From positions 38,224 through 102,223 of the forward strand of contig JAZNJZ010000033.1 in assembly GCA_045578325.1 (NCBI GenBank): a stretch of 64,000 nt of DNA, given 5' to 3'. Below are positions 1,877 through 45,548 of the stretch, in pieces. A program made the translations under genes and the position numbers. Positions within the stretch are counted from its first letter, which is position 1. The number at the start of each line of letters is the position of its first letter. Source of the stretch: Eubacterium sp. GTDB lineage: Bacteria > Bacillota > Clostridia > Lachnospirales > Lachnospiraceae. Below the pieces are notes generated by a model, which saw only the letters and a list, made by a program, of their open reading frames with translations, was not told where the DNA came from and searched no databases.

Positions 1877-2221
1877 CTAGGACAGATCCTTTTTAAGTTT
1901 CAAAGCTTGCAATATTATATGTACTCTTTGGGTGTTAGAGTAACATATAAACTACCTTTACTTAATCTTAAGTTGTTTTTTCGTAGTTATGTATCCTTCC
2001 TTAGACACCACTACGGTTATTTTGTCAATGTCACATCTAAACACCATGGCTCAAATTGGGTAGAATAAAATAGAAAGAACGAAAGGGCATGATAAATATG
2101 TTTGAAAACTAAAGAATTTACTGAAACTGAGACACCATAAAACATAAAAAAGTCGACGTCGTTGATTCGCAACATATAGGAATCAATAACGTCGTCTTTT
2201 CTAAACAAGTAACGTCGATTA

Positions 2222-3382
2222 TTAAATCGTATCCAGCACTTGCTCAAATGTAATTTTCTCGCCATTTGAAATCAATTCAAATCCAATCGCACTATGGTTT
2301 TCAGATGTTCTTGACTCATCTTCAAAAGCATTGATTTCATACATTTCCTTAGTTCCTAATTTCTCCAAAAATTGAATCAGTACCCCTTGATAGATAATAG
2401 CGGTCATGTCATCTACTTGAATGGAACCGTGTTTCGATTCTACAATTTTCTCGATACACAAAATCAAATCCGAAACGATTGGATGTTCTTCTTCCATTTT
2501 CTCATTTTCCAGCGCCGTTTTTTCCATCGCTTTATTAAATGCTTCTCCTTGTGGAAATGGTTGTTGACTCTCCTTACATGTCAAGAAATCCAATTGTCGC
2601 AACTGGCTATCATCCACATAAAACAGAAAATTATTATTGAATCCAATCGGAGCCTGTCCTTTTACTCGCTGTACTGGATCCTTGTATCCATCCGGCCATG
2701 GAAGCCCCATATTGTCGTAGTCCACCAAAAAACAATAGCAATCAAAGGCACCATTCTGAAACTTATGTAATTTAACTTTCTCTGGTACTTGTTGTGGTTG
2801 CTCCTCCTCTTCCATTTCTGGCACCACAAACCACGAACCTGTACTTATGGCATTACGTTTCTGGTAAAATTCATAATCTTGCTGATAGGTATTATTTGGT
2901 GTTGATACAATACGCATAATCAAACTTTCTATTGTTACTCCATTATACTTTCCGCCTTGTACATCAAACCCACCTTCTCCCAGATGTTTCCCTTTCATGC
3001 GTAAGAATCCATTTGTTCCTGGAACTCGCTGCCCGAATCCACCACCTAGCGAAGTGGACGATGTCAAAAATTCCATAATACTCCATGTCAAATATTCTGG
3101 CATCACAGCATCACGAAACAACGCCATGTTAAGTGTCTTATTTTCTGCCCATTCCTTCTTTACATGACTGCACTCTGGAATAATGGCATATTGCACAAAA
3201 CCTTTGTCTGTGCCAAGGTAATAATACAATGTATTTCCCTCTACAGAGACCACCATTGATCGAATGGTACCATATGTCTCTGTCCAAAGTTGTGCCTTAC
3301 GTTTAGGATGTTCACAAAATTGCTCAAGCACCAATGGTACAACACCGACAAACTGCGAATTAGAAGCATTAAAATTCTTCAT
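2222..3382 (-). CDS. Hypothetical protein, 386 aa, no family recognised
   Basis: Long ORF with AGGAGG RBS; acidic/Gln linker EEEEQPQQVPE suggests two domains. Confidence 0.75.
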   Translation of the reverse strand: MKNFNASNSQFVGVVPLVLEQFCEHPKRKAQLWTETYGTIRSMVVSVEGNTLYYYLGTDKGFVQYAIIPECSHVKKEWAENKTLNMALFRDAVMPEYLTWSIMEFLTSSTSLGGGFGQRVPGTNGFLRMKGKHLGEGGFDVQGGKYNGVTIESLIMRIVSTPNNTYQQDYEFYQKRNAISTGSWFVVPEMEEEEQPQQVPEKVKLHKFQNGAFDCYCFLVDYDNMGLPWPDGYKDPVQRVKGQAPIGFNNNFLFYVDDSQLRQLDFLTCKESQQPFPQGEAFNKAMEKTALENEKMEEEHPIVSDLILCIEKIVESKHGSIQVDDMTAIIYQGVLIQFLEKLGTKEMYEINAFEDESRTSENHSAIGFELISNGEKITFEQVLDTI

Positions 3383-3504
3383 TTTTCATTCCTCCTATTT
3401 CATACTAAATTTCTAATCTAATTGTATCATATCGTGGAAAAAATGAACACACTCTTTTCCGCTTTGCTGCATCTCGCTGGGGGCTGGCGCCCAATCTCCG
3501 CTAC

Positions 3505-3642
3505 GCTACAAGCCATGCCCCATTCGGACTTCGCTTTGCTCCGTCCTCATGGGCGGCTGTCGCCGTATAATAAATCAAAAACAGCACATCCAACGAGCGA
3601 GCTCGTGATGTGCTGTTTCCGATTTATTGCATGGCTTGTAGC
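3505..3642. repeat. Nested palindromic (REP/MITE-like) element with 14-bp terminal inverted repeats
   Basis: GCTACAAGCCATGC (3505-3518) and GCATGGCTTGTAGC (3629-3642) are exact reverse complements; they enclose further hairpins, e.g. AACAGCACATC...GATGTGCTGTT. Confidence 0.7.
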
Positions 3643-4188
3643 TTAACCAAAGTATCGCTGCAACAATCCAGCGAATGCTTTTCCGTGTCTAGCTTCGTCT
3701 CTTGCCATCTCATGTACGGTGTCATGGATTGCATCAAGATTCTGCTCTTTCGCACGTTTTGCAAGATCAAATTTTCCTGCTGTTGCACCATTTTCTGCTG
3801 CCACACGCATCTCAAGGTTTTTCTTTGTGCTATCTGTTACAACTTCTCCTAAAAGTTCTGCAAATTTTGCTGCATGCTCTGCTTCTTCCCAAGCTGCTTT
3901 CTCCCAGTAAAGTCCGATTTCTGGATATCCTTCTCTATGAGCTACGCGAGCCATTGCAAGATACATACCTACTTCGGAGCACTCTCCCTCAAAGTTTGCA
4001 CGAAGGTCTGCAAGGATATCCTCGCTTACTCCTTTTGCTACTCCTACTACGTGCTCTGCTGCCCAGCTCAACTCGCCTTCTTTCTGCTCGTTGAATTTCT
4101 CAGCTGGTACATTACACTGTGGGCACTTCTCTGGTGCTGCATCTCCTTCATGAACATAACCACATACGGAACAAACAAATTTTTTCAT
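3643..4188 (-). CDS. rbr: Reverse rubrerythrin (N-terminal rubredoxin + ferritin-like domain), copy 2
   Basis: CSVCGY...CPQC rubredoxin motif; diiron motifs ECSE, EEAEHA, DEARHG. Confidence 0.92.
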
Positions 4189-4253
4189 ATCGATTCTCTC
4201 CTTTTAATTAAATTATTTTATATGGTGACATTTCTGTCAAAATTACATCGTAC

Positions 4254-4634
4254 CTACAGACACTCTTTACATCTGCCATAAAAGTAAATTTGATGTCCTT
4301 CAATCTCTCCATCAAAATTTGTAGCAGCGGTGTCATTAATGCTATCGATGGATGGCATATCCAGATCCAACACGCACCCACACTTTTTACATATAAAATG
4401 ATGATGTGGTGCTACCGTAGCATCAAAATGATCAATCCCGTCACCGCAGTCCAACCGAAGAATTTCACCACAATCGGCAAGCAAATTCAGGTTGCGATAT
4501 ACGGTTCCCAGACTTATCTTAGGAAACTCCTCCCGAATCGTCATATATACGGTTTCCGCCGTTGGATGCGACTTGGTGGAGCGCAAGTAGGTGAGAATCG
4601 CCTCACGCTGCTTACTATATTTCATTCCTGCCAT
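4254..4634 (-). CDS. perR: Fur-family regulator, PerR-like
   Basis: SHPTAETVY, SLGTVYRNL, HHHFICKKCG, CKEC motifs; located between rubrerythrin genes. Confidence 0.8.
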   Translation of the reverse strand: MAGMKYSKQREAILTYLRSTKSHPTAETVYMTIREEFPKISLGTVYRNLNLLADCGEILRLDCGDGIDHFDATVAPHHHFICKKCGCVLDLDMPSIDSINDTAATNFDGEIEGHQIYFYGRCKECL

Positions 4635-4680
4635 ATATTCTCACCTCATTTCTTCAATCGAGGCGCATAGCACTGCTAGA

Positions 4681-4857
4681 TTATGCAGTAAACTCTGCTA
4701 CCAATTCTGCAATTCTATCAACACAACCACCGCATACAGTACCAGCAGAAGTCGCCTCCTGTACTGCTTCTACTGTTGTTGCGCCTGCCTCTACTGCTGC
4801 TTTAATATCCCCAGCAGTTACTCCCATACAAAAGCAAATTGTTTCGTTCATATCCAT
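4681..4857 (-). CDS. BFD-like [2Fe-2S]-binding small protein, 58 aa (not in ORF track)
   Basis: Manual translation MDMNETICFCMGVTAGDIKAAVEAGATTVEAVQEATSAGTVCGGCVDRIAELVAEFTA; CxC...CxxC motif; GGAGG RBS. Confidence 0.85.
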   Translation of the reverse strand: MDMNETICFCMGVTAGDIKAAVEAGATTVEAVQEATSAGTVCGGCVDRIAELVAEFTA

Positions 4858-4890
4858 AACAAATACCTCCTATATAGACAATGATTTTTA

Positions 4891-5436
4891 TTATCCAAAA
4901 TATCTCTTTAACAAACCTTCAAATGCTTTTCCGTGACGAGCCTCATCTCTTGCCATCTCATGTACAGTGTCATGGATTGCATCGAGGTTCTGCTCTTTCG
5001 CACGTTTTGCAAGATCAAATTTTCCTGCTGTTGCACCATTCTCTGCTGCCACACGCATCTCAAGATTTTTCTTTGTGCTATCCGTTACCACTTCTCCCAG
5101 AAGCTCTGCGAATTTTGCTGCATGCTCTGCTTCTTCCCAAGCTGCTTTCTCCCAGTAAAGTCCGATTTCTGGATAACCTTCTCTATGAGCTACACGAGCC
5201 ATTGCAAGATACATACCTACCTCAGAACACTCTCCTTCGAAGTTTGCACGAAGGTCTGCAAGGATGTCCTCGCTTACTCCTTTTGCTACTCCTACTACAT
5301 GCTCTGCTGCCCAGCTCAACTCGCCTTCTTTCTGCTCGTTGAATTTCTCAGCTGGTACATTACACTGTGGGCACTTTTCTGGTGCTGCATCTCCTTCATG
5401 AACATAACCACATACGGAACAAACAAATTTTTTCAT
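4891..5436 (-). CDS. rbr: Reverse rubrerythrin, copy 1
   Basis: Same motifs as 3643-4188; the two proteins differ at only 2 residues near the C-terminus. Confidence 0.92.
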
Positions 5437-5470
5437 AGTAAATCTCTCCTTTATTTTTATTATTGATATT

Positions 5471-5521
5471 AGTAATCGTTACTGTTATTGATATAATACA
5501 ATATGAATCGACAAATGTCAA
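5471..5521 (-). promoter_or_regulatory. SigA promoter with putative PerR operator
   Basis: TTGACA (5521-5516), 17 nt, TATTAT (5498-5493); near-palindrome AGTAATCGTTACT at 5471-5483, just downstream of the -10. Confidence 0.6.
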
Positions 5522-5597
5522 CACTTTTTGAAAAATTTTTTCAACAAATTTTCTTTCTTGCTAATCTATGATATAATATAGAGAAAAGAGGTTTTTT

Positions 5598-6854
5598 ATG
5601 AACAAAAGAAAATACATATTTAGCAGATTGTTCACAGGGATTCTAACCGGACTTCTGGCGGGTGGCGTCATCTGCCTTTATCGATACCTTATTACCATCT
5701 GCGACAAAGCACTCAATAAATATATTTTCCCGTTCATTCACAACGGAAACCCGTTTGCCCTTCCCCTCTGGTGCGCAGGGCTTGTTGTATTGGCTTTTAT
5801 CGTTCATATGAGTATTCGATGGGAAAAACATGCGCGTGGTGGCGGTATTCCCCATGCGGTCCAGGAAGCGGCCGAGTTGCAAGACAGCACTTGGGACCGG
5901 GTCATCCTTGGCAAACTCATTACGGCACCGCTATGCCTTCTCGCTGGTTTCTCTTTAGGAAAAGCTGGACCTGCCATCGAACTGGGTGCCATGGCCGGAA
6001 AGGGAATTTCTAAAATCACATACAATATCCATCGTTTGTTTTTCTACCAACCACAACCAAAGATTCCAACTTCCGAAGGAATTCGTGCTGGAGCAGCCGC
6101 AGGACTTTCTGCGCTTTTCAATGCTCCCGTGGCAGGGTTTTTTTTCGCCATAGAAAAAATGAAAAAGACACCTGGCATTTCCTTGGTATCCATTCTTTCT
6201 GCGTCCCTAGCCGCCTTCTGGGTTAGCACTTGCGTGTATGGCCATGCGCCTATCGTTTCCTTTTCTCTCATCACTGCCAATCCCTTAGACTATCTCTCCT
6301 TTGCTGTACTTGGCATTTTCATGGGGCTCCTTGGCACATTTTATGCCGGCTCCCTAACCTATTTTACGAAAAAGTTTTCCACAAAGAACGGCTTTTCCCA
6401 GCTGGCTCTGTGGATCTTTGCTTTTGTCCTTGCTGGAATAACAGGATACTATCTTCCAGAAATCACAGGCGGTGGCACCAATCTTCTCGCCGTTATGGCA
6501 ACTCCTTCTGTGACTCTGCGAACTCTTTGCTATTTGGCCTTTGCCAAATATCTTTTCTCCATGCTTTCCTCTGGTTCCGGATTACCTGGTGGCACGGTGT
6601 TCCCTCTTCTCACCATTGGTGGTTGTCTGGGACAATGTTTCGCAATGATAGCAAATACACTCTTTCCTTCTCTGGAAATCACTCCTCTGAACTGGATCAT
6701 TCCAAGTATGGCCGGATTCTTTACCGCTGTTATCGGCGCACCGCTTACTGGTGTGTTTTTGCTCTGCGAATTCACTTGTCAGTATGAAATCTTTCTACCA
6801 CTGGCAATCACTTGTGGACTCTCCCATCTCGTGGCCAAAATTCTCACAAAATAA
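5598..6854 (+). CDS. ClC-family chloride channel/transporter with degenerate motifs
   Basis: Multi-TM protein with ClC landmarks GGGIP (canonical GSGIP), GKAGP (canonical GREGP), AAGLSALFNAPVAG.FF..E, GLPGGTVFP, APLTG.FL..E.T. Confidence 0.85.
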   Translation: MNKRKYIFSRLFTGILTGLLAGGVICLYRYLITICDKALNKYIFPFIHNGNPFALPLWCAGLVVLAFIVHMSIRWEKHARGGGIPHAVQEAAELQDSTWDRVILGKLITAPLCLLAGFSLGKAGPAIELGAMAGKGISKITYNIHRLFFYQPQPKIPTSEGIRAGAAAGLSALFNAPVAGFFFAIEKMKKTPGISLVSILSASLAAFWVSTCVYGHAPIVSFSLITANPLDYLSFAVLGIFMGLLGTFYAGSLTYFTKKFSTKNGFSQLALWIFAFVLAGITGYYLPEITGGGTNLLAVMATPSVTLRTLCYLAFAKYLFSMLSSGSGLPGGTVFPLLTIGGCLGQCFAMIANTLFPSLEITPLNWIIPSMAGFFTAVIGAPLTGVFLLCEFTCQYEIFLPLAITCGLSHLVAKILTK

Positions 6855-6870
6855 ATCCATTGTCCTTCGC

Positions 6871-6897
6871 ACCTTCTGCGAATTTTGTCATAAATTA
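6871..6897 (+). promoter_or_regulatory. Putative mother-cell (SigK-like) promoter of cotJ operon
   Basis: AC (6871-6872), 16 nt, CATAAATTA (6889-6897), fitting the AC-N16-CATAnnnTA consensus. Confidence 0.5.
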
Positions 6898-6924
6898 TAG
6901 TAAAAAGACAAAAGGAGAATTTCC

Positions 6925-7206
6925 ATGAATAATCAATATTCCAACTCTTGTGGCTGTGACAATGCCGGCGCTACTATGCAACCCGCTTCACAGTACAAGC
7001 AGAGAAAAAGTCTGGCTATGGCTTACGTTCCTTGGCAGACTTGGCAAAATGTAATGGACGGCTGCAGTGGTTTAAAACACGGCTCCATCTTTGAAGAATT
7101 GGTGCTTCCATTTGAAGGCACAAAAGCCGCCTGCGCCTTCTATAATCGCCGAGACAGCAAAGACATGGGGTACAACAACACGTATTATAGGAGGGGAATG
7201 AAATGA
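6925..7206 (+). CDS. cotJA: Spore coat-associated protein CotJA
   Basis: LAMAYVPWQ.W and GL..GSIFEEL..PF motifs; first gene of a cotJ operon. Confidence 0.88.
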   Translation: MNNQYSNSCGCDNAGATMQPASQYKQRKSLAMAYVPWQTWQNVMDGCSGLKHGSIFEELVLPFEGTKAACAFYNRRDSKDMGYNNTYYRRGMK

Positions 7207-7463
7207 ATCCGTCTGACCGCGCCAAAATGATGCGTTACATTCAGGAACTGGGCTTTGCCATCGACGATATCGTCCTTTATCTGGATACCCATCCGAAAGA
7301 TCAAGATGCTTTGATGTACTACGAAAAGTATAAAAAAATGTACAAAGAGGCACGTAAAGAATACACAAAGTATTTTGGACCTCTTGTAAATGAAAATGTT
7401 AATATTGAAAATGGCTGTTGGAGTTGGGTAGAAGGTCCATGGCCTTGGGAAGGGGGTTGCTAG
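7203..7463 (+). CDS. cotJB: Spore coat protein CotJB
   Basis: FAIDDIVLYLDTHP.D..AL, Y..YFGPL, W.WVEGPWPWE motifs. Confidence 0.92.
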   Translation: MNPSDRAKMMRYIQELGFAIDDIVLYLDTHPKDQDALMYYEKYKKMYKEARKEYTKYFGPLVNENVNIENGCWSWVEGPWPWEGGC

Positions 7464-7466
7464 GAA

Positions 7467-7652
7467 ATGTGGAATTATGAAAAACGATTGCAATATCCGG
7501 TAAATATTGCAAGACCAAATGCTCAATTGGCAAAAGTGATCATTAGTCAGTTCGGAGGTCCCGACGGAGAGGTCGGAGCAGCCATGCGTTATCTCTCCCA
7601 GCGCTACTCCAACACCAACCGTAAGGTAGCTGGTGTTTTGACGGATATTGGT
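7467..7652 (+). CDS. cotJC: CotJC (Mn-catalase family), 5' part of split gene, codons 1-62
   Basis: MWNYEKRLQYPVNI...SQFGGPDGEVGAAMRYLSQRY...LTDIG; similarity stops at Gly62 and the track ORF 7467-8240 reads through into unrelated sequence. Confidence 0.92.
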
Positions 7653-7806
7653 GTATCGGTACTGAAAATGCCCCAAAAGATTGTCCTACCTAAGAACACC
7701 TCCACGCAACTTGATAGTATAAGATCTTTCTATTTCTTGACAATAATCTCTTCCTATAATAAAATAACATTTAGAAGAAATGGGTTTTTTACCGTACGTG
7801 CAAAGA

Positions 7807-8159
7807 TTACTCTTTGTAGCCAAGCGGGGTGCCCGTTTCTCTTTTTATATTCACAATATCATACAAATACAATTTTCCATTTCTATCATGACGAACTAGT
7901 AATTCTGCATAAAACATATTATATCTCTCCACATCTCCATTTTCGTCAAATACAGGAAGGGCAAATCGTTTCCCAGATAAATTACATCTCCTGTTTCCAA
8001 AACTTCAAAAAACTCTCCTATGTACTGTTTCAGATATTTTTCCACATCATCCCAATTGATCTTTCGCTTGCCCCGAAAATAAATATCATGGATAATAACA
8101 ATCTTTTTCCCTTCCAAATCTTCAATAATGCTCACATTTCTATCCATTTCGTATCTCAT
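7807..8159 (-). pseudogene. Internally deleted, frameshifted cargo gene (LYDIVNIK-type; possibly LPD3/BECR-like family)
   Basis: N-terminal frame ...IFRGKRKINWDDVEKYLK...YLGNDLP-like segment (track ORF 7896-8159) overlaps a second frame RFALPVFDENGDVERYNMFYAELLVRHDRNGKLYLYDIVNIKRETGTPLGYKE* (7968-7807) across the 9 nt CGATTTGCC. Family assignment is from recollection. Confidence 0.65.
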
Positions 8160-9801
8160 CCCTTTCCTCTAATATCTCATTCACAAATTTACTTTCCAAT
8201 ATGTCCGTATGATATTCTTTCCCTTTGCCGGAAGATTTAATTTTCAATTCAATGCCAAAAGAAAGACTTTTCAGCCATACCACAAGTCGATTACGCCCTT
8301 TTTCCGTTTCATGATAAATGTCAATTCGCCCCAAAATTTCCCGATACAGCATCTCATTTCCCCCGCAAAAAGAAAGAATCCTGTCCACCGTTTTCTCTAG
8401 CTCATCCATACGCTCTTCAAGTTTGCTGAATTGCTGATTCCGATGCTCATTTTCTATTAGCAATGCTTGAAGACGCTCCCCTTCTTTGTCGTACCACTGG
8501 GATTGCCGTTCCCATTCTTCTTTGGTAAGAATTCCATCAAGAAGAGCATCAAAAGATTTTCGTTTTTTTGTCTCGATGCCTTCCAGCTTTCGATGTATCT
8601 TGTCTTTATCAAAAATGGTTTCCTTCGTTCCACACACTTCCTTAACACAAGATAATATTTCTCTTCGTAATTCATTCCGATCATCACACAAGAGCTTGAC
8701 ACAATATGTCATACAAGCAAGCAAAGCTCTATCATTAATTAAATTGTTGTTGCATCCCATTTCTTTTCCAGCCACATCCATTTTTAATGAACCATGTGTT
8801 GCTGTCTGATAACACCGCCATGCCTTGTATGTACCACCTGGCAACTTCTTCGTTCTGCTTACATATCGACTGCCACATTCCCCACAATGTATTTTCCCAC
8901 TGCACCAATAACGATTACTGTGCTTTGTCTTATTATCTGCCTTCAATGAACGTCTGGAAAGTTCTTCCTGTGTCCTATCCCACAAATCCCGATCGATAAT
9001 AGCTTCATGATGGTTTTTGATATACACCTTCTCCTCCGCTCCATTATTTATTTTCTTCTCATGGGTCAAATAATTTGGTGTATACGTTTTTTTCTGGCAT
9101 AAATCCCCCACATATTTTTCGTTTCGCAAAGCCCGAAGAATGACGTTGTTCGACCACCCAGAGAGCCGTTTTGGTCTTAGCCCTTCTTCCATTAGCTCTC
9201 TAGCAATGATGTGAGTGCCTTTTCCTTCGTTGGTGTATTTGTGGAAAATAGCTCGCACCACCGGAACTTCTTCTTCATTAATGGAAAGCACACCATCCTT
9301 CACTGTATAGCCTAGCATATCGCGTCCGAAAACAATTCCTTGCTCCATCCTTCGTTTTTGCCCCCATTTGACGCGCTCCGAAGTCTTGCGACTCTCTTCC
9401 TGTGCAATACTCGCCATAATTGTCAAACGCAACTCTCCATCGCTATCTCTTGTATCAATATTATCAATCGTAAATACGACGCCCACGCCGGCCTCTTTGA
9501 GTTTCCGCGTGTACGACAAAGTGTCCACTGTATTTCGTGCAAAACGACAAACCTCTTTGGTCAGAATCAAATCAACCTCTCCCAACAAGGCATTGTTTAT
9601 CATTTGATTAAATCCTGCTCTTTTTTTCGTCTGTGTTCCACTTACACCCTCATCATAATAAACGCGAGATAGTGTCCAGCCTTTATGATGCCTAATGTAA
9701 TCTGCAAAATATTTTTTTTGACTCGCTAGGGAATTTATCTGATCTTCCTTATCTGTAGATACTCTTGCATATGCTGCAACTCGTAATAGATTGTTTGACA
9801 T
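8140..9801 (-). CDS. Large serine recombinase (resolvase + recombinase + Zn-ribbon + coiled coil), SpoIVCA-like
   Basis: RVAAYARVST catalytic motif, Y.DEGVSGT, KEVCRFARN, SIAQEESRKTSERVKWG, LRNEKYVGD, CGECG...WRC; GGAGG RBS. Confidence 0.95.
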   Translation of the reverse strand: MSNNLLRVAAYARVSTDKEDQINSLASQKKYFADYIRHHKGWTLSRVYYDEGVSGTQTKKRAGFNQMINNALLGEVDLILTKEVCRFARNTVDTLSYTRKLKEAGVGVVFTIDNIDTRDSDGELRLTIMASIAQEESRKTSERVKWGQKRRMEQGIVFGRDMLGYTVKDGVLSINEEEVPVVRAIFHKYTNEGKGTHIIARELMEEGLRPKRLSGWSNNVILRALRNEKYVGDLCQKKTYTPNYLTHEKKINNGAEEKVYIKNHHEAIIDRDLWDRTQEELSRRSLKADNKTKHSNRYWCSGKIHCGECGSRYVSRTKKLPGGTYKAWRCYQTATHGSLKMDVAGKEMGCNNNLINDRALLACMTYCVKLLCDDRNELRREILSCVKEVCGTKETIFDKDKIHRKLEGIETKKRKSFDALLDGILTKEEWERQSQWYDKEGERLQALLIENEHRNQQFSKLEERMDELEKTVDRILSFCGGNEMLYREILGRIDIYHETEKGRNRLVVWLKSLSFGIELKIKSSGKGKEYHTDILESKFVNEILEERDEIRNG

Positions 9802-9851
9802 TGTGCTACCTCCAGAATATGGTCAAGCACATCATAAAATAATTATACACA

Positions 9852-10022
9852 CTACCTTATGATGCGTAAACTAGATTTTCTATTTTTTTGCAAAAGAATG
9901 TTTAGTTCCACATCGGTAAGTAATTTCTCTTTGTGAAGTTGTTTATAAATTCCATCTTTCAATGTGTCGTGAAATTTCTTTCTATCCTCACATACATTTA
10001 ATTTTTCTGCTTTTTCTTGCAT
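9852..10022 (-). CDS. 56-aa small protein, candidate recombination directionality factor (not in ORF track)
   Basis: Manual translation MQEKAEKLNVCEDRKKFHDTLKDGIYKQLHKEKLLTDVELNILLQKNRKSSLRIIR; co-oriented and 50 nt upstream of the recombinase; short SHOCT-like helical pattern. Confidence 0.55.
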   Translation of the reverse strand: MQEKAEKLNVCEDRKKFHDTLKDGIYKQLHKEKLLTDVELNILLQKNRKSSLRIIR

Positions 10023-10117
10023 TATCTAATCATCTCAACTCGAAATATATCTATACAATTTATGCAATAAAAAAAATAAATTCCCCTCCTTGGTGCAATT
10101 TCACCTCCAAACTCGGT

Positions 10118-10540
10118 ACCGAAGAACTGGCTCACATGGAAATTGTGTGTGCCATCATCCACCAGCTCACCAAGAACCTCACCGCAGAGGAATTGCAAGA
10201 GCAGGGCTTCGCCCCTTACTACGTGGACCACACCATCGGTTTGTGGCCACAGGCTGCTTCCGGCGAGCCATGGAGTGCCAGCATGATCCAATCCACCGGG
10301 GATCCCATTGCAGACCTTCATGAGGACTTGGCAGCAGAACAGAAAGCCCGCCTGACCTACGACAACATCCTCCGTCTCGTAAAAGACCCCGATGTGTGCG
10401 ACCCTATCAAATATTTGCGCCAGCGCGAATTGGTTCACTATCAGCGATTCGGCGAAAGCCTTCGCTTGATTCAAGATGAGCTGGATAGCAAAAACTTCTA
10501 CGCATTTAATAAGGACTTTGATAAGCAATTCTGTAAGTAA
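10118..10540 (+). CDS. cotJC: CotJC, 3' part of split gene
   Basis: TEELAHMEIVCAIIHQL...GDPIADLHEDLAAEQKARLTYDNIL...RELVHYQRFGE; no own RBS or start; the rejoined gene gives 202 aa. Confidence 0.92.
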   Translation, partial: TEELAHMEIVCAIIHQLTKNLTAEELQEQGFAPYYVDHTIGLWPQAASGEPWSASMIQSTGDPIADLHEDLAAEQKARLTYDNILRLVKDPDVCDPIKYLRQRELVHYQRFGESLRLIQDELDSKNFYAFNKDFDKQFCK

Positions 10541-10620: not shown

Positions 10621-10929
10621 TCATTTTTGAGTATTTTTCAATGCATTGTACTGCTCTAACTCCCGTATTAATTTTCTAACCATACTCATTTGATCATCTG
10701 TCAACTCGGCTTTCATCAACTGCATATCATCTGAGAGTCCCAATAAATAATCGGAAGAAATCCCGAAAATCGTGCACAACTTAACAAGCACCTCAATAGA
10801 TGGGTACTTTTTCCCTTGTTCATATGCAGAAACCGTTCCCTTTACTAACTCCAGCTTTTGCGCTAACTGTTCCTGCGTCATATGTTTTTCCAAACGTAAT
10901 GCTCTTAACTTCTCTCCAAAATATTGCAT
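10621..10929 (-). CDS. XRE-family HTH transcriptional regulator
   Basis: FGEKLRALRLEKHMTQEQLAQKL...VSAYEQG...PSIEVLVKLCTIFGISSDYLLG; AGGAG RBS before ATG 10929. Confidence 0.9.
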   Translation of the reverse strand: MQYFGEKLRALRLEKHMTQEQLAQKLELVKGTVSAYEQGKKYPSIEVLVKLCTIFGISSDYLLGLSDDMQLMKAELTDDQMSMVRKLIRELEQYNALKNTQK

Positions 10930-10974
10930 GGCACTCACTCCTAAATATAGTATATAAAAGCAATGTCTCTTTTG

Positions 10975-45210: not shown

Positions 45211-45548
45211 AAAAAAAGCCGCCTCCTTTTCGTACTGATTAAATAATAATTTTAGTACGACAAGTGGTGACTGTACACTCATCCGTGTGTGTCATGCCGG
45301 TTCACACAAAATTCCGCCTTGTGGCGGAAATCCCTTGCGGGTTGTTGATACACACGTTTATCTGCTCCTTGGCAGAATATATGGTTCGTACAGTGACTTG
45401 CCGTCAGGTTTAACGACCCCAAATATACTTGGTGGTCTCTTGACATTCGCTCCACGGAAAACCCATTCTTACTGAATGGCAACCTCACGCTTCACAGCTA
45501 TCATGTCACAGCAACACCCATTGTACACCATAATTCCACCAATTGCAA
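45211..45548 (-). promoter_or_regulatory. S10 operon promoter and ~300-nt structured leader (putative r-protein leader)
   Basis: TTGCAA (45548-45543), 17 nt, TACAAT (45525-45520); leader contains hairpins such as TTCCGCC...GGCGGAA. Resemblance to the clostridial S10 leader is from recollection. Confidence 0.6.

Follow-up and report, generated by a model that had tools for sequence, protein, structure and literature searches.

What separates the two halves of cotJC in the genome considered here, and should this gene be taken as broken or as the carrier of an insert that can be removed precisely? The question is raised by a 64,000-nucleotide stretch of Eubacterium sp. (family Lachnospiraceae; assembly GCA_045578325.1, contig JAZNJZ010000033.1), hereafter called the window, in whose sequence cotJC is interrupted at codon 62 by a 2465-bp insert (7652-10116) containing a gene for a large serine recombinase. 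Our analysis, in which the insert was compared with related loci of other species, establishes the anatomy of this element, the position of its crossover, the architecture and conservation of its half-sites and the sequence of the joined attB site. We consider it likely that the insert is a minimal intervening element of the skin/SPbeta/gin type, which would be excised from cotJC in the mother cell. The interrupted gene is the last one of the cotJA-cotJB-cotJC operon, which is laid out in the window as follows.

6925-7206, plus strand: cotJA (Pfam CotJA, E=9.5e-16)
7203-7463, plus strand: cotJB (Pfam CotJB, E=4.4e-31), directly 5' of the split cotJC
7467-7651, plus strand: 5' fragment of cotJC, codons 1-61 and the GG of codon 62, in translation in frame with 10117-10540
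10115-10540, plus strand: 3' fragment of cotJC, from codon 62 to the stop codon

When 7467-7651 and 10117-10540 are joined in silico, an uninterrupted CotJC protein of 202 residues results, of the manganese-catalase type, which reads ..VLTDIG/TEELAHME.. over the junction (marked by the stroke) and is colinear with intact homologues. One of these, locus L081, has the identical gene order with an intact cotJC, its CotJC protein being 92% identical and colinear over the junction (..ACCGATATC GGT ACGGAGGAG..). Furthermore, a 631-nt contig from a gut metatranscriptome (depth 14.4), approximately 98% identical to the window, passes from 7446-7649 straight into 10115-10540. Its joint omits exactly 2465 bases and leaves three letters (GGT) ambiguous, and from 7605 to 10146 no difference is listed; as this RNA contig joins both parts of cotJC, the predicted attB, ...GACGGATATT-GG-TACCGAAGAACTG..., exists as a contiguous sequence. 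An earlier note on this DNA had predicted the same attB and had claimed that joining at a GG dinucleotide restores the cotJC frame, and both claims are borne out by the joined protein, by the RNA contig and by L081. The predicted recombination sites of the window are the following.

7650-7651, plus strand: left copy of the crossover dinucleotide GG, placed by symmetry and family comparison
10115-10116, plus strand: right copy of GG, on the same strand as the left one
7630-7676, plus strand: attL, composed of the attB left half (7630-7649), GG (7650-7651) and the attP right half-site (7652-7676)
10090-10136, plus strand: attR, composed of the attP left half-site, GG and the attB right half, which includes AGAACTGGCTCACA at 10123-10136, a match to the outer motif displaced 5 bp inward
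7652-7676, plus strand: attP right half-site, with the inner motif TGTATCGGTAC (7652-7662) and the outer arm TGAAAATGCCCCAA (7663-7676)
10090-10114, plus strand: attP left half-site, in which the outer arm is TTGGTGCAATTTCA (10090-10103) and the inner part, CCTCCAAACTC (10104-10114), has diverged

Because both GG copies lie on the same strand, recombination of attL with attR would delete the element and leave attB in the chromosome and attP on a circle. The predicted attP, TTGGTGCAATTTCACCTCCAAACTC-GG-TGTATCGGTACTGAAAATGCCCCAA, is when reconstructed a 52-bp imperfect inverted repeat, symmetric about the axis between the two Gs (G/G), in which the arms TTGGTGCAATTTCA and TGAAAATGCCCCAA are reverse complementary at 12 of 14 positions and stand each 11 nt from GG. 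These positions, arm sequences and spacings agree in full with what the earlier note had given, and its further statement that symmetry singles out the frame-restoring crossover also withstands examination. Within 30 nt of the junctions there are 244 crossover pairs that share a dinucleotide, and two of them keep the arms: GG at 7650/10115 and its mirror, GA at 7644/10121.

The comparison rests on a scan of one genome per species, which yielded 80 related loci with integrases 53-77% identical to that of the window, almost all from metagenome-assembled genomes and isolates of Lachnospiraceae. In 69 of the 80 a cotJC fragment broken at residue ~62, that is, in the same codon, adjoins the integrase. 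The junctions that could be extracted, the window included, comprise 60 attL and 31 attR sites, with both sides available for 23 elements. From the centre outward, one consensus, G-TGTATCGGTatCGAAATTGCrCATct, is common to both attP half-sites and stands in the same register. The right half-site of the window fits this consensus through G-TGTATCGGTatCGAAATTGCrCAT and obtains with a position weight matrix (PWM) 14.5 bits for its inner and 7.0 bits for its outer motif; in the left half-site the outer motif gives 11.3 bits and the inner one -0.9 bits. We therefore predict, from this shared consensus, a recognised half-site of approximately 25 nt with an inner motif of the TGTATCGGTA type and an outer motif of the GAAATTGCnC type. 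The 14-bp arms of the earlier note are thus present as described, and form the outer part of a longer recognised unit.

One might regard the symmetric arms as a coincidence in AT-rich DNA, playing no part in recombinase binding. The region is indeed AT-rich, the arms agree at no more than 12 of 14 positions, and in the window there is little symmetry over the inner 11 nt. Such a reading is nevertheless hardly credible, for when 200,000 random left and right pairs are drawn from the same window, symmetry over 14 nt with 12 matches or more, offsets of up to 30 being allowed, comes up at a rate of 1e-4. The motif stands, moreover, at an equal distance in both halves of some 20 independent elements, in the 60 attL and 31 attR sites, and the window attP obtains 31.9 bits by a PWM made from other loci only, against at most -6.8 bits elsewhere in the 64 kb, the next-best site being attL itself with 9.5 bits.

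In both attP halves the outer-motif PWM peaks at start 12, with some +14 bits. A single outer-motif peak, of +1.3 bits (the next is -8.8), is seen in the attB right half at start 7, 5 bp inward, where GAAcTgGCnCAt stands for GAAATTGCrCAT; since attB is conserved coding sequence, this shift counts as one observation. The attB left half has the inner motif at the attP register, with +7.8 bits.

As to the dinucleotide itself, attL and attR of the window share GGT, so that GG and GT are both formally possible when this locus is taken alone. In two other loci (L006 and L069) the overlap is exactly GG. Loci that have GGG at attL and GGT at attR exclude GT, while any crossover further left is excluded by loci, the window among them, in which the bases left of GG differ. 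Since both attP half-sites give one consensus in one register, the symmetry axis must run between the two Gs. A crossover at the overlapping GT (7651-52 / 10116-17), or at another shared sequence close by such as CGGTAC (7657-62 / 10114-19) or GA (7644 / 10121), is accordingly very improbable, although each has something to recommend it: GT is allowed by the shared GGT of the window, CGGTAC is a 6-nt direct repeat, and a shift to GA leaves the symmetry axis unchanged and the frame open. GT fails on the GGG/GGT loci and on the two overlaps of GG alone, and the half-site consensuses come into register only about the G/G axis; a junction at CGGTAC would bring in 7 nt and disrupt the frame; the GA crossover removes the residues DIGT, which are found in every intact homologue and in the joined RNA contig. 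All three were rejected on these grounds, and we conclude with high confidence, from the sequences compared, that GG is the predicted crossover and the arms are binding sites of the recombinase.

Among the 18 loci where it could be resolved, the reconstituted cotJC is full length in 13, the remainder containing loci where cotJC is broken a second time beside an unrelated serine recombinase. Such a second break, near residue ~135 or ~190, is seen in L006 (77-1084, 1668-1907) and L079 (9469-10455, 11284-11361), and also in L025 and L055; in L006 and L079 it adjoins a second, unrelated serine recombinase (25-29% identity), and cotJC can therefore carry two different elements simultaneously. Fragments of cotJC also adjoin more distant integrases (44-46% identity) in two scaffolds of human faecal viromes, L133 (MT837874.1) and L134 (MT839280.1), unannotated entries named 'Bacteriophage sp.', which are probably pieces of bacterial chromosomes and not phage genomes.

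The element encodes an integrase and a candidate partner protein for the proposed excision. The relevant features, with the candidate promoter sequences, are these.

8140-9801, minus strand: large serine recombinase of 553 residues (Pfam, PHROG and PDB matches)
9842-9870, minus strand: sigma70-like promoter, TTTACG-17-TATAAT, followed by a GGAGG ribosome-binding site (consensus scan only)
9852-10022, minus strand: open reading frame (ORF) of 56 residues, conserved and unannotated, directly upstream of the recombinase
10057-10064, minus strand: CATAAATT box preceding the small ORF by 42 nt; candidate -10 element of sigmaE/K type
6889-6896, plus strand: CATAAATT box preceding cotJA, 36 nt before its start codon; candidate -10 element for the cotJ operon, of the mother-cell (sigmaE/K) type
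7807-8159, minus strand: two ORF fragments, of 87 residues (7896-8159) and 41 residues (7807-7932), from tblastn and the ORF list

The recombinase has the complete domain set of its class, with Pfam Resolvase (PF00239, 6.5e-33), Recombinase (PF07508, 7.2e-22) and Zn_ribbon_recom (PF13408, 1.6e-7) all above the cut-offs, and it matches PHROG 95, integrase (3.9e-116). Its N-terminal domain matches PDB 3g13 (6e-45) and aligns with resolvase and TP901-1 catalytic domains, the YARVS motif within ..VAAYARVSTDKEDQ.. giving Ser15 as the nucleophile. Together with the common half-site consensus and the loci that overlap in GG alone, this domain set upholds the earlier note in assigning the sites to a serine integrase with GG at the centre. 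The candidate integrase promoter, a consensus match, may parallel the constitutive expression of the recombinases of SPbeta and skinCd.

Serine integrases require a directionality factor for recombination between attL and attR, a role for which the 56-residue ORF suggests itself. Of 93 related loci, 72 have a homologue of it ~100 nt upstream of the integrase; homologues so placed are known from L001-L094 and L135-L137. The family, invariably placed beside the cotJC-targeting integrase, 45-60 residues long with the invariant core LKxGIYKELHxRxLLSDxQLNxLL, comprises 482 database protein clusters, all of them unnamed or 'hypothetical', and the window protein was modelled as a two-helix hairpin (AlphaFold, predicted local distance difference test, pLDDT, 80). 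Searches with the family returned only weak SHOCT matches (2 of 26), and Foldseek against the PDB gave nothing with E<1; a likeness to the coiled-coil hairpin of an integrase (9dxh_A, E=9.6) is too weak and was not used as evidence.

It would be logical to look at how this small ORF is switched. The operon cotJ is sigmaE-dependent in B. subtilis, and in the window the 8-mer CATAAATT stands identical upstream of cotJA and of the small ORF. Of 60 related loci, 48 have a CATAnnnT box in a fixed place, typically ~36 nt ahead of the small-ORF start codon, as compared with at most 3 of 60 in control windows. In sequence these CATA boxes are similar to -10 elements used by sigma factors E and K of the mother cell. 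As upstream of the small ORF in the window no convincing sigmaE -35 box was matched at the canonical spacing, a -10-like box is all that we claim. The box before the small ORF suggests that synthesis of its product is confined to the mother cell during sporulation.

The following course of events may be proposed. The 553-residue recombinase would bind attL and attR as dimers, the attB half-sites being presumably shorter than those of attP, with the outer motif 5 bp nearer to the centre. The enzyme would cleave attL and attR at GG, leaving a 2-nt stagger, rotate its subunits and religate, giving an intact cotJC with attB and a 2.5-kb circle with attP. Excision from attL and attR most likely requires the 56-residue helical-hairpin protein, and if the small ORF is expressed only in the sporulating mother cell, the spore chromosome would retain the element. 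On balance we favour the view that excision is programmed in the mother cell in this way and that the small ORF serves as the directionality factor.

The related elements tell more about what the window copy may have been. With 2465 bp it is the smallest member seen, its relatives having 2.7-7.3 kb. The ORFs of 87 and 41 residues, which lie between the integrase and attL, are remnants of a gene for 177 residues that is intact in L001 (8350-8883); this cargo ORF belongs to no Pfam or PHROG family. Faecalimonas-type loci (L135-L137, ~2200-7870) carry, beside the small ORF and the integrase, genes for a Rep protein (Viral_Rep and superfamily-3 helicase) and an FtsK/SpoIIIE-like ATPase. The same element is found in cotJC of genomes that differ beyond cotJA (again L135-L137), which implies horizontal spread, and 202 blocks with differing flanks contain one and the same small protein, so that the family must be mobile and specific for cotJC. 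Cultured bacteria also carry family members, for example Faecalimonas umbilicata, Jutongia hominis BX3, Lacrimispora saccharolytica An817 and the mouse isolates 1XD42-76 and 1xD42-87.

Could the att sites then be as predicted, and the window copy be nevertheless a stranded or plain insertion, which inactivates cotJC or excises sporadically, without any programme in the mother cell? A number of observations weigh against the explanation preferred here, and several of them on that side: the failure to detect an excised form, the decayed cargo with the absent genes, the diverged left half-site with its low rank, and the spread of the larger relatives. As to the first, the excised form was not detected. 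The attP junction 24-mer of the window (CCTCCAAACTCGGTGTATCGGTAC) has 0 matches in metagenome contigs, and the family attP pattern (18 specified bases) has 38 there, all by chance, with ~35 expected randomly; none has an integrase or cotJC nearby, and the best reaches 14.6 bits, against 31.9 for the window attP. Thirteen IMG/VR contigs with related integrases contain no free attP, those with cotJC fragments or half-sites representing the integrated state, and in the GenBank phage collection the best matches, L133 and L134, adjoin cotJC fragments and likewise have no free attP. The circle junction was not seen in two gut sequencing runs of low share. The joined RNA contig could stem from a strain that never carried the element, and the run in which it was found has no depth over the element.

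Other points concern features of the element. Its attP ranks near the bottom of the family by PWM, because the left inner part CCTCCAAACTC has diverged, and in the PWM scan the outer motif has no clear peak in the attB left half. The cargo gene has decayed and the Rep and FtsK-like genes of the larger relatives are absent, for which reason the window copy may have little activity or be immobile. Neither Pfam nor NCBIfam nor PHROG has a family for the small ORF, no similarity of which to a known directionality factor was detected, and all promoter assignments are consensus matches only. Finally, the larger relatives look mobilisable and horizontally spread, so that site preference alone could explain their common target.

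Several facts speak for the opposite. In the window both the integrase and the small ORF are intact. Between species in which the identity of cotJC is only 51-95%, its split halves have kept their open frames and are conserved, and most give a full-length gene on reconstitution. The CATA box of mother-cell type that precedes the small ORF is conserved and is the same as that before cotJA. In addition, all studied large-serine-recombinase elements in mother-cell sporulation genes excise during sporulation (PMC5595907, PMC4191935, PMC5025042). We hold a stranded or plain insertion to be unlikely, and keep to a minimal intervening element with mother-cell excision as the preferred explanation.

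For the family as a whole we may even suggest, on a judgement that we put at evenly balanced, that the window represents the most reduced member of a large, undescribed cotJC-targeting family in gut Lachnospiraceae, whose core would consist of the integrase and a new helical-hairpin directionality factor of 45-60 residues, switched on by a mother-cell sigma factor. If this is true, there are dozens of diverged triplets of integrase, attP and factor, which act on one short conserved attB inside cotJC. These natural variants of one integrase/att system on one target would be of value for learning how serine integrases read attP as against attB, and for making orthogonal tools for integration. 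The site-specific or programmed interruption of sporulation genes would be extended to cotJC of Lachnospiraceae that are abundant in the gut and difficult to study in their sporulation, and a precise, testable att pair becomes available together with a partner-protein candidate that belongs to a new sequence family. In practical terms, cotJC in such genomes should not be annotated as a pseudogene.

Some further observations on the window may be recorded. A terminator-like hairpin with a T run (7822-7838, plus strand) lies just within the element, 3' of the truncated cotJC 5' fragment, and could terminate transcripts of the cotJ operon as long as the element is unexcised. Upstream of the cotJ operon there are two rubrerythrin genes for 181 residues each (3643-4188 and 4891-5436, both minus strand), ~1.2 kb apart and with nearly identical Pfam scores, which looks like a recent duplication. 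Outside the element, right after the cotJC 3' end, a gene for a 105-residue Cro/C1-type helix-turn-helix protein is convergent with it (10621-10938, minus strand), and a ribosomal-protein leader of the S10-Clostridia type lies at 45398-45503 (minus strand; Rfam RF03136, 68 bits), which agrees with a host from Clostridia. The ClpB protein of this uncultured gut 'Eubacterium sp.' is 96-97% identical to proteins from metagenome-assembled genomes that bear the same name.

How does this element relate to the systems already known? As an integration target cotJC goes back to Abe et al. 2013, as cited in bioRxiv 10.1101/2021.11.22.469490, and its interruption in Laceyella sacchari is given in bioRxiv 10.1101/2022.02.25.481979. 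In these earlier cases the coding sequence is likewise interrupted by a recombinase-bearing element, but they belong to Bacilli and are listed without an analysis of att sites. In the searchable literature no description was found of the family from Lachnospiraceae, of its att consensus or of its partner ORF. The earlier note, which had spoken of a new integrase/att pair, understated the matter in that the site belongs to a large family.

The skin (sigK-intervening) elements with SpoIVCA, among them minimal two-gene versions of 2.6 kb, vary in size between a few kb and some tens of kb and have no common cargo (Galperin et al., bioRxiv 10.1101/2022.02.25.481979). As in skin, the recombinase gene lies at the element's edge, a mother-cell sporulation gene is split and precise excision restores its frame. 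Unlike in skin, the target is cotJC and not sigK, the integrase is of another lineage with att sites of its own, there is a 56-residue partner ORF, and excision is here a prediction. In skinCd of Clostridioides difficile (PMC5025042) the recombinase CD1231 is reported to be constitutive and the mother-cell-expressed factor CD1234 to set the timing, which is the logic proposed here; the target gene, the size (14.6 kb) and the proteins differ.

SPbeta, with SprA and SprB, in spsM of Bacillus subtilis (PMC4191935, PMC5499854) combines a serine integrase with a small directionality factor, as we propose for the cotJC element. Its sprB gene has a sigmaE/K -10 box, with transcription starting 20 nt before the start codon (PMC4191935). 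A factor gene with a -10 box of this type and a short leader, a separately expressible integrase and an attP symmetric about the central dinucleotide are predicted similarly in our case. SPbeta is, however, an active phage of 134 kb, and the present element has 2.5 kb and no phage genes; the 56-residue ORF showed no sequence or fold likeness to known factors in family and PDB searches, in which SprB itself was not compared.

Of a non-phage nature is gin in gerE of Bacillus cereus, whose excision requires a serine recombinase and a small factor, GirC and GirX (PMC5595907), and whose attG is also an imperfect inverted repeat about a central dinucleotide. It has 31 genes, three recombinases and an overlap of 9 bp with its target, as against two or three genes and 2-3 bp here.

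With regard to the architecture of the sites, the nearest parallel is the Listeria LI/A118 integrase, whose attP half-sites of ~25 bp have an inner motif for the recombinase domain and a distal zinc-ribbon motif at 16-24, the latter being displaced 5 bp inward in attB (Rutherford et al. 2013, PMC3783163). Our motifs have unrelated sequences, and in the cotJC family the shifted motif is clear in the attB right half only. In its predicted geometry the family resembles A118/LI, with the outer motif at 13-24 in attP and, as a single observation, at 8-19 in the attB right half.

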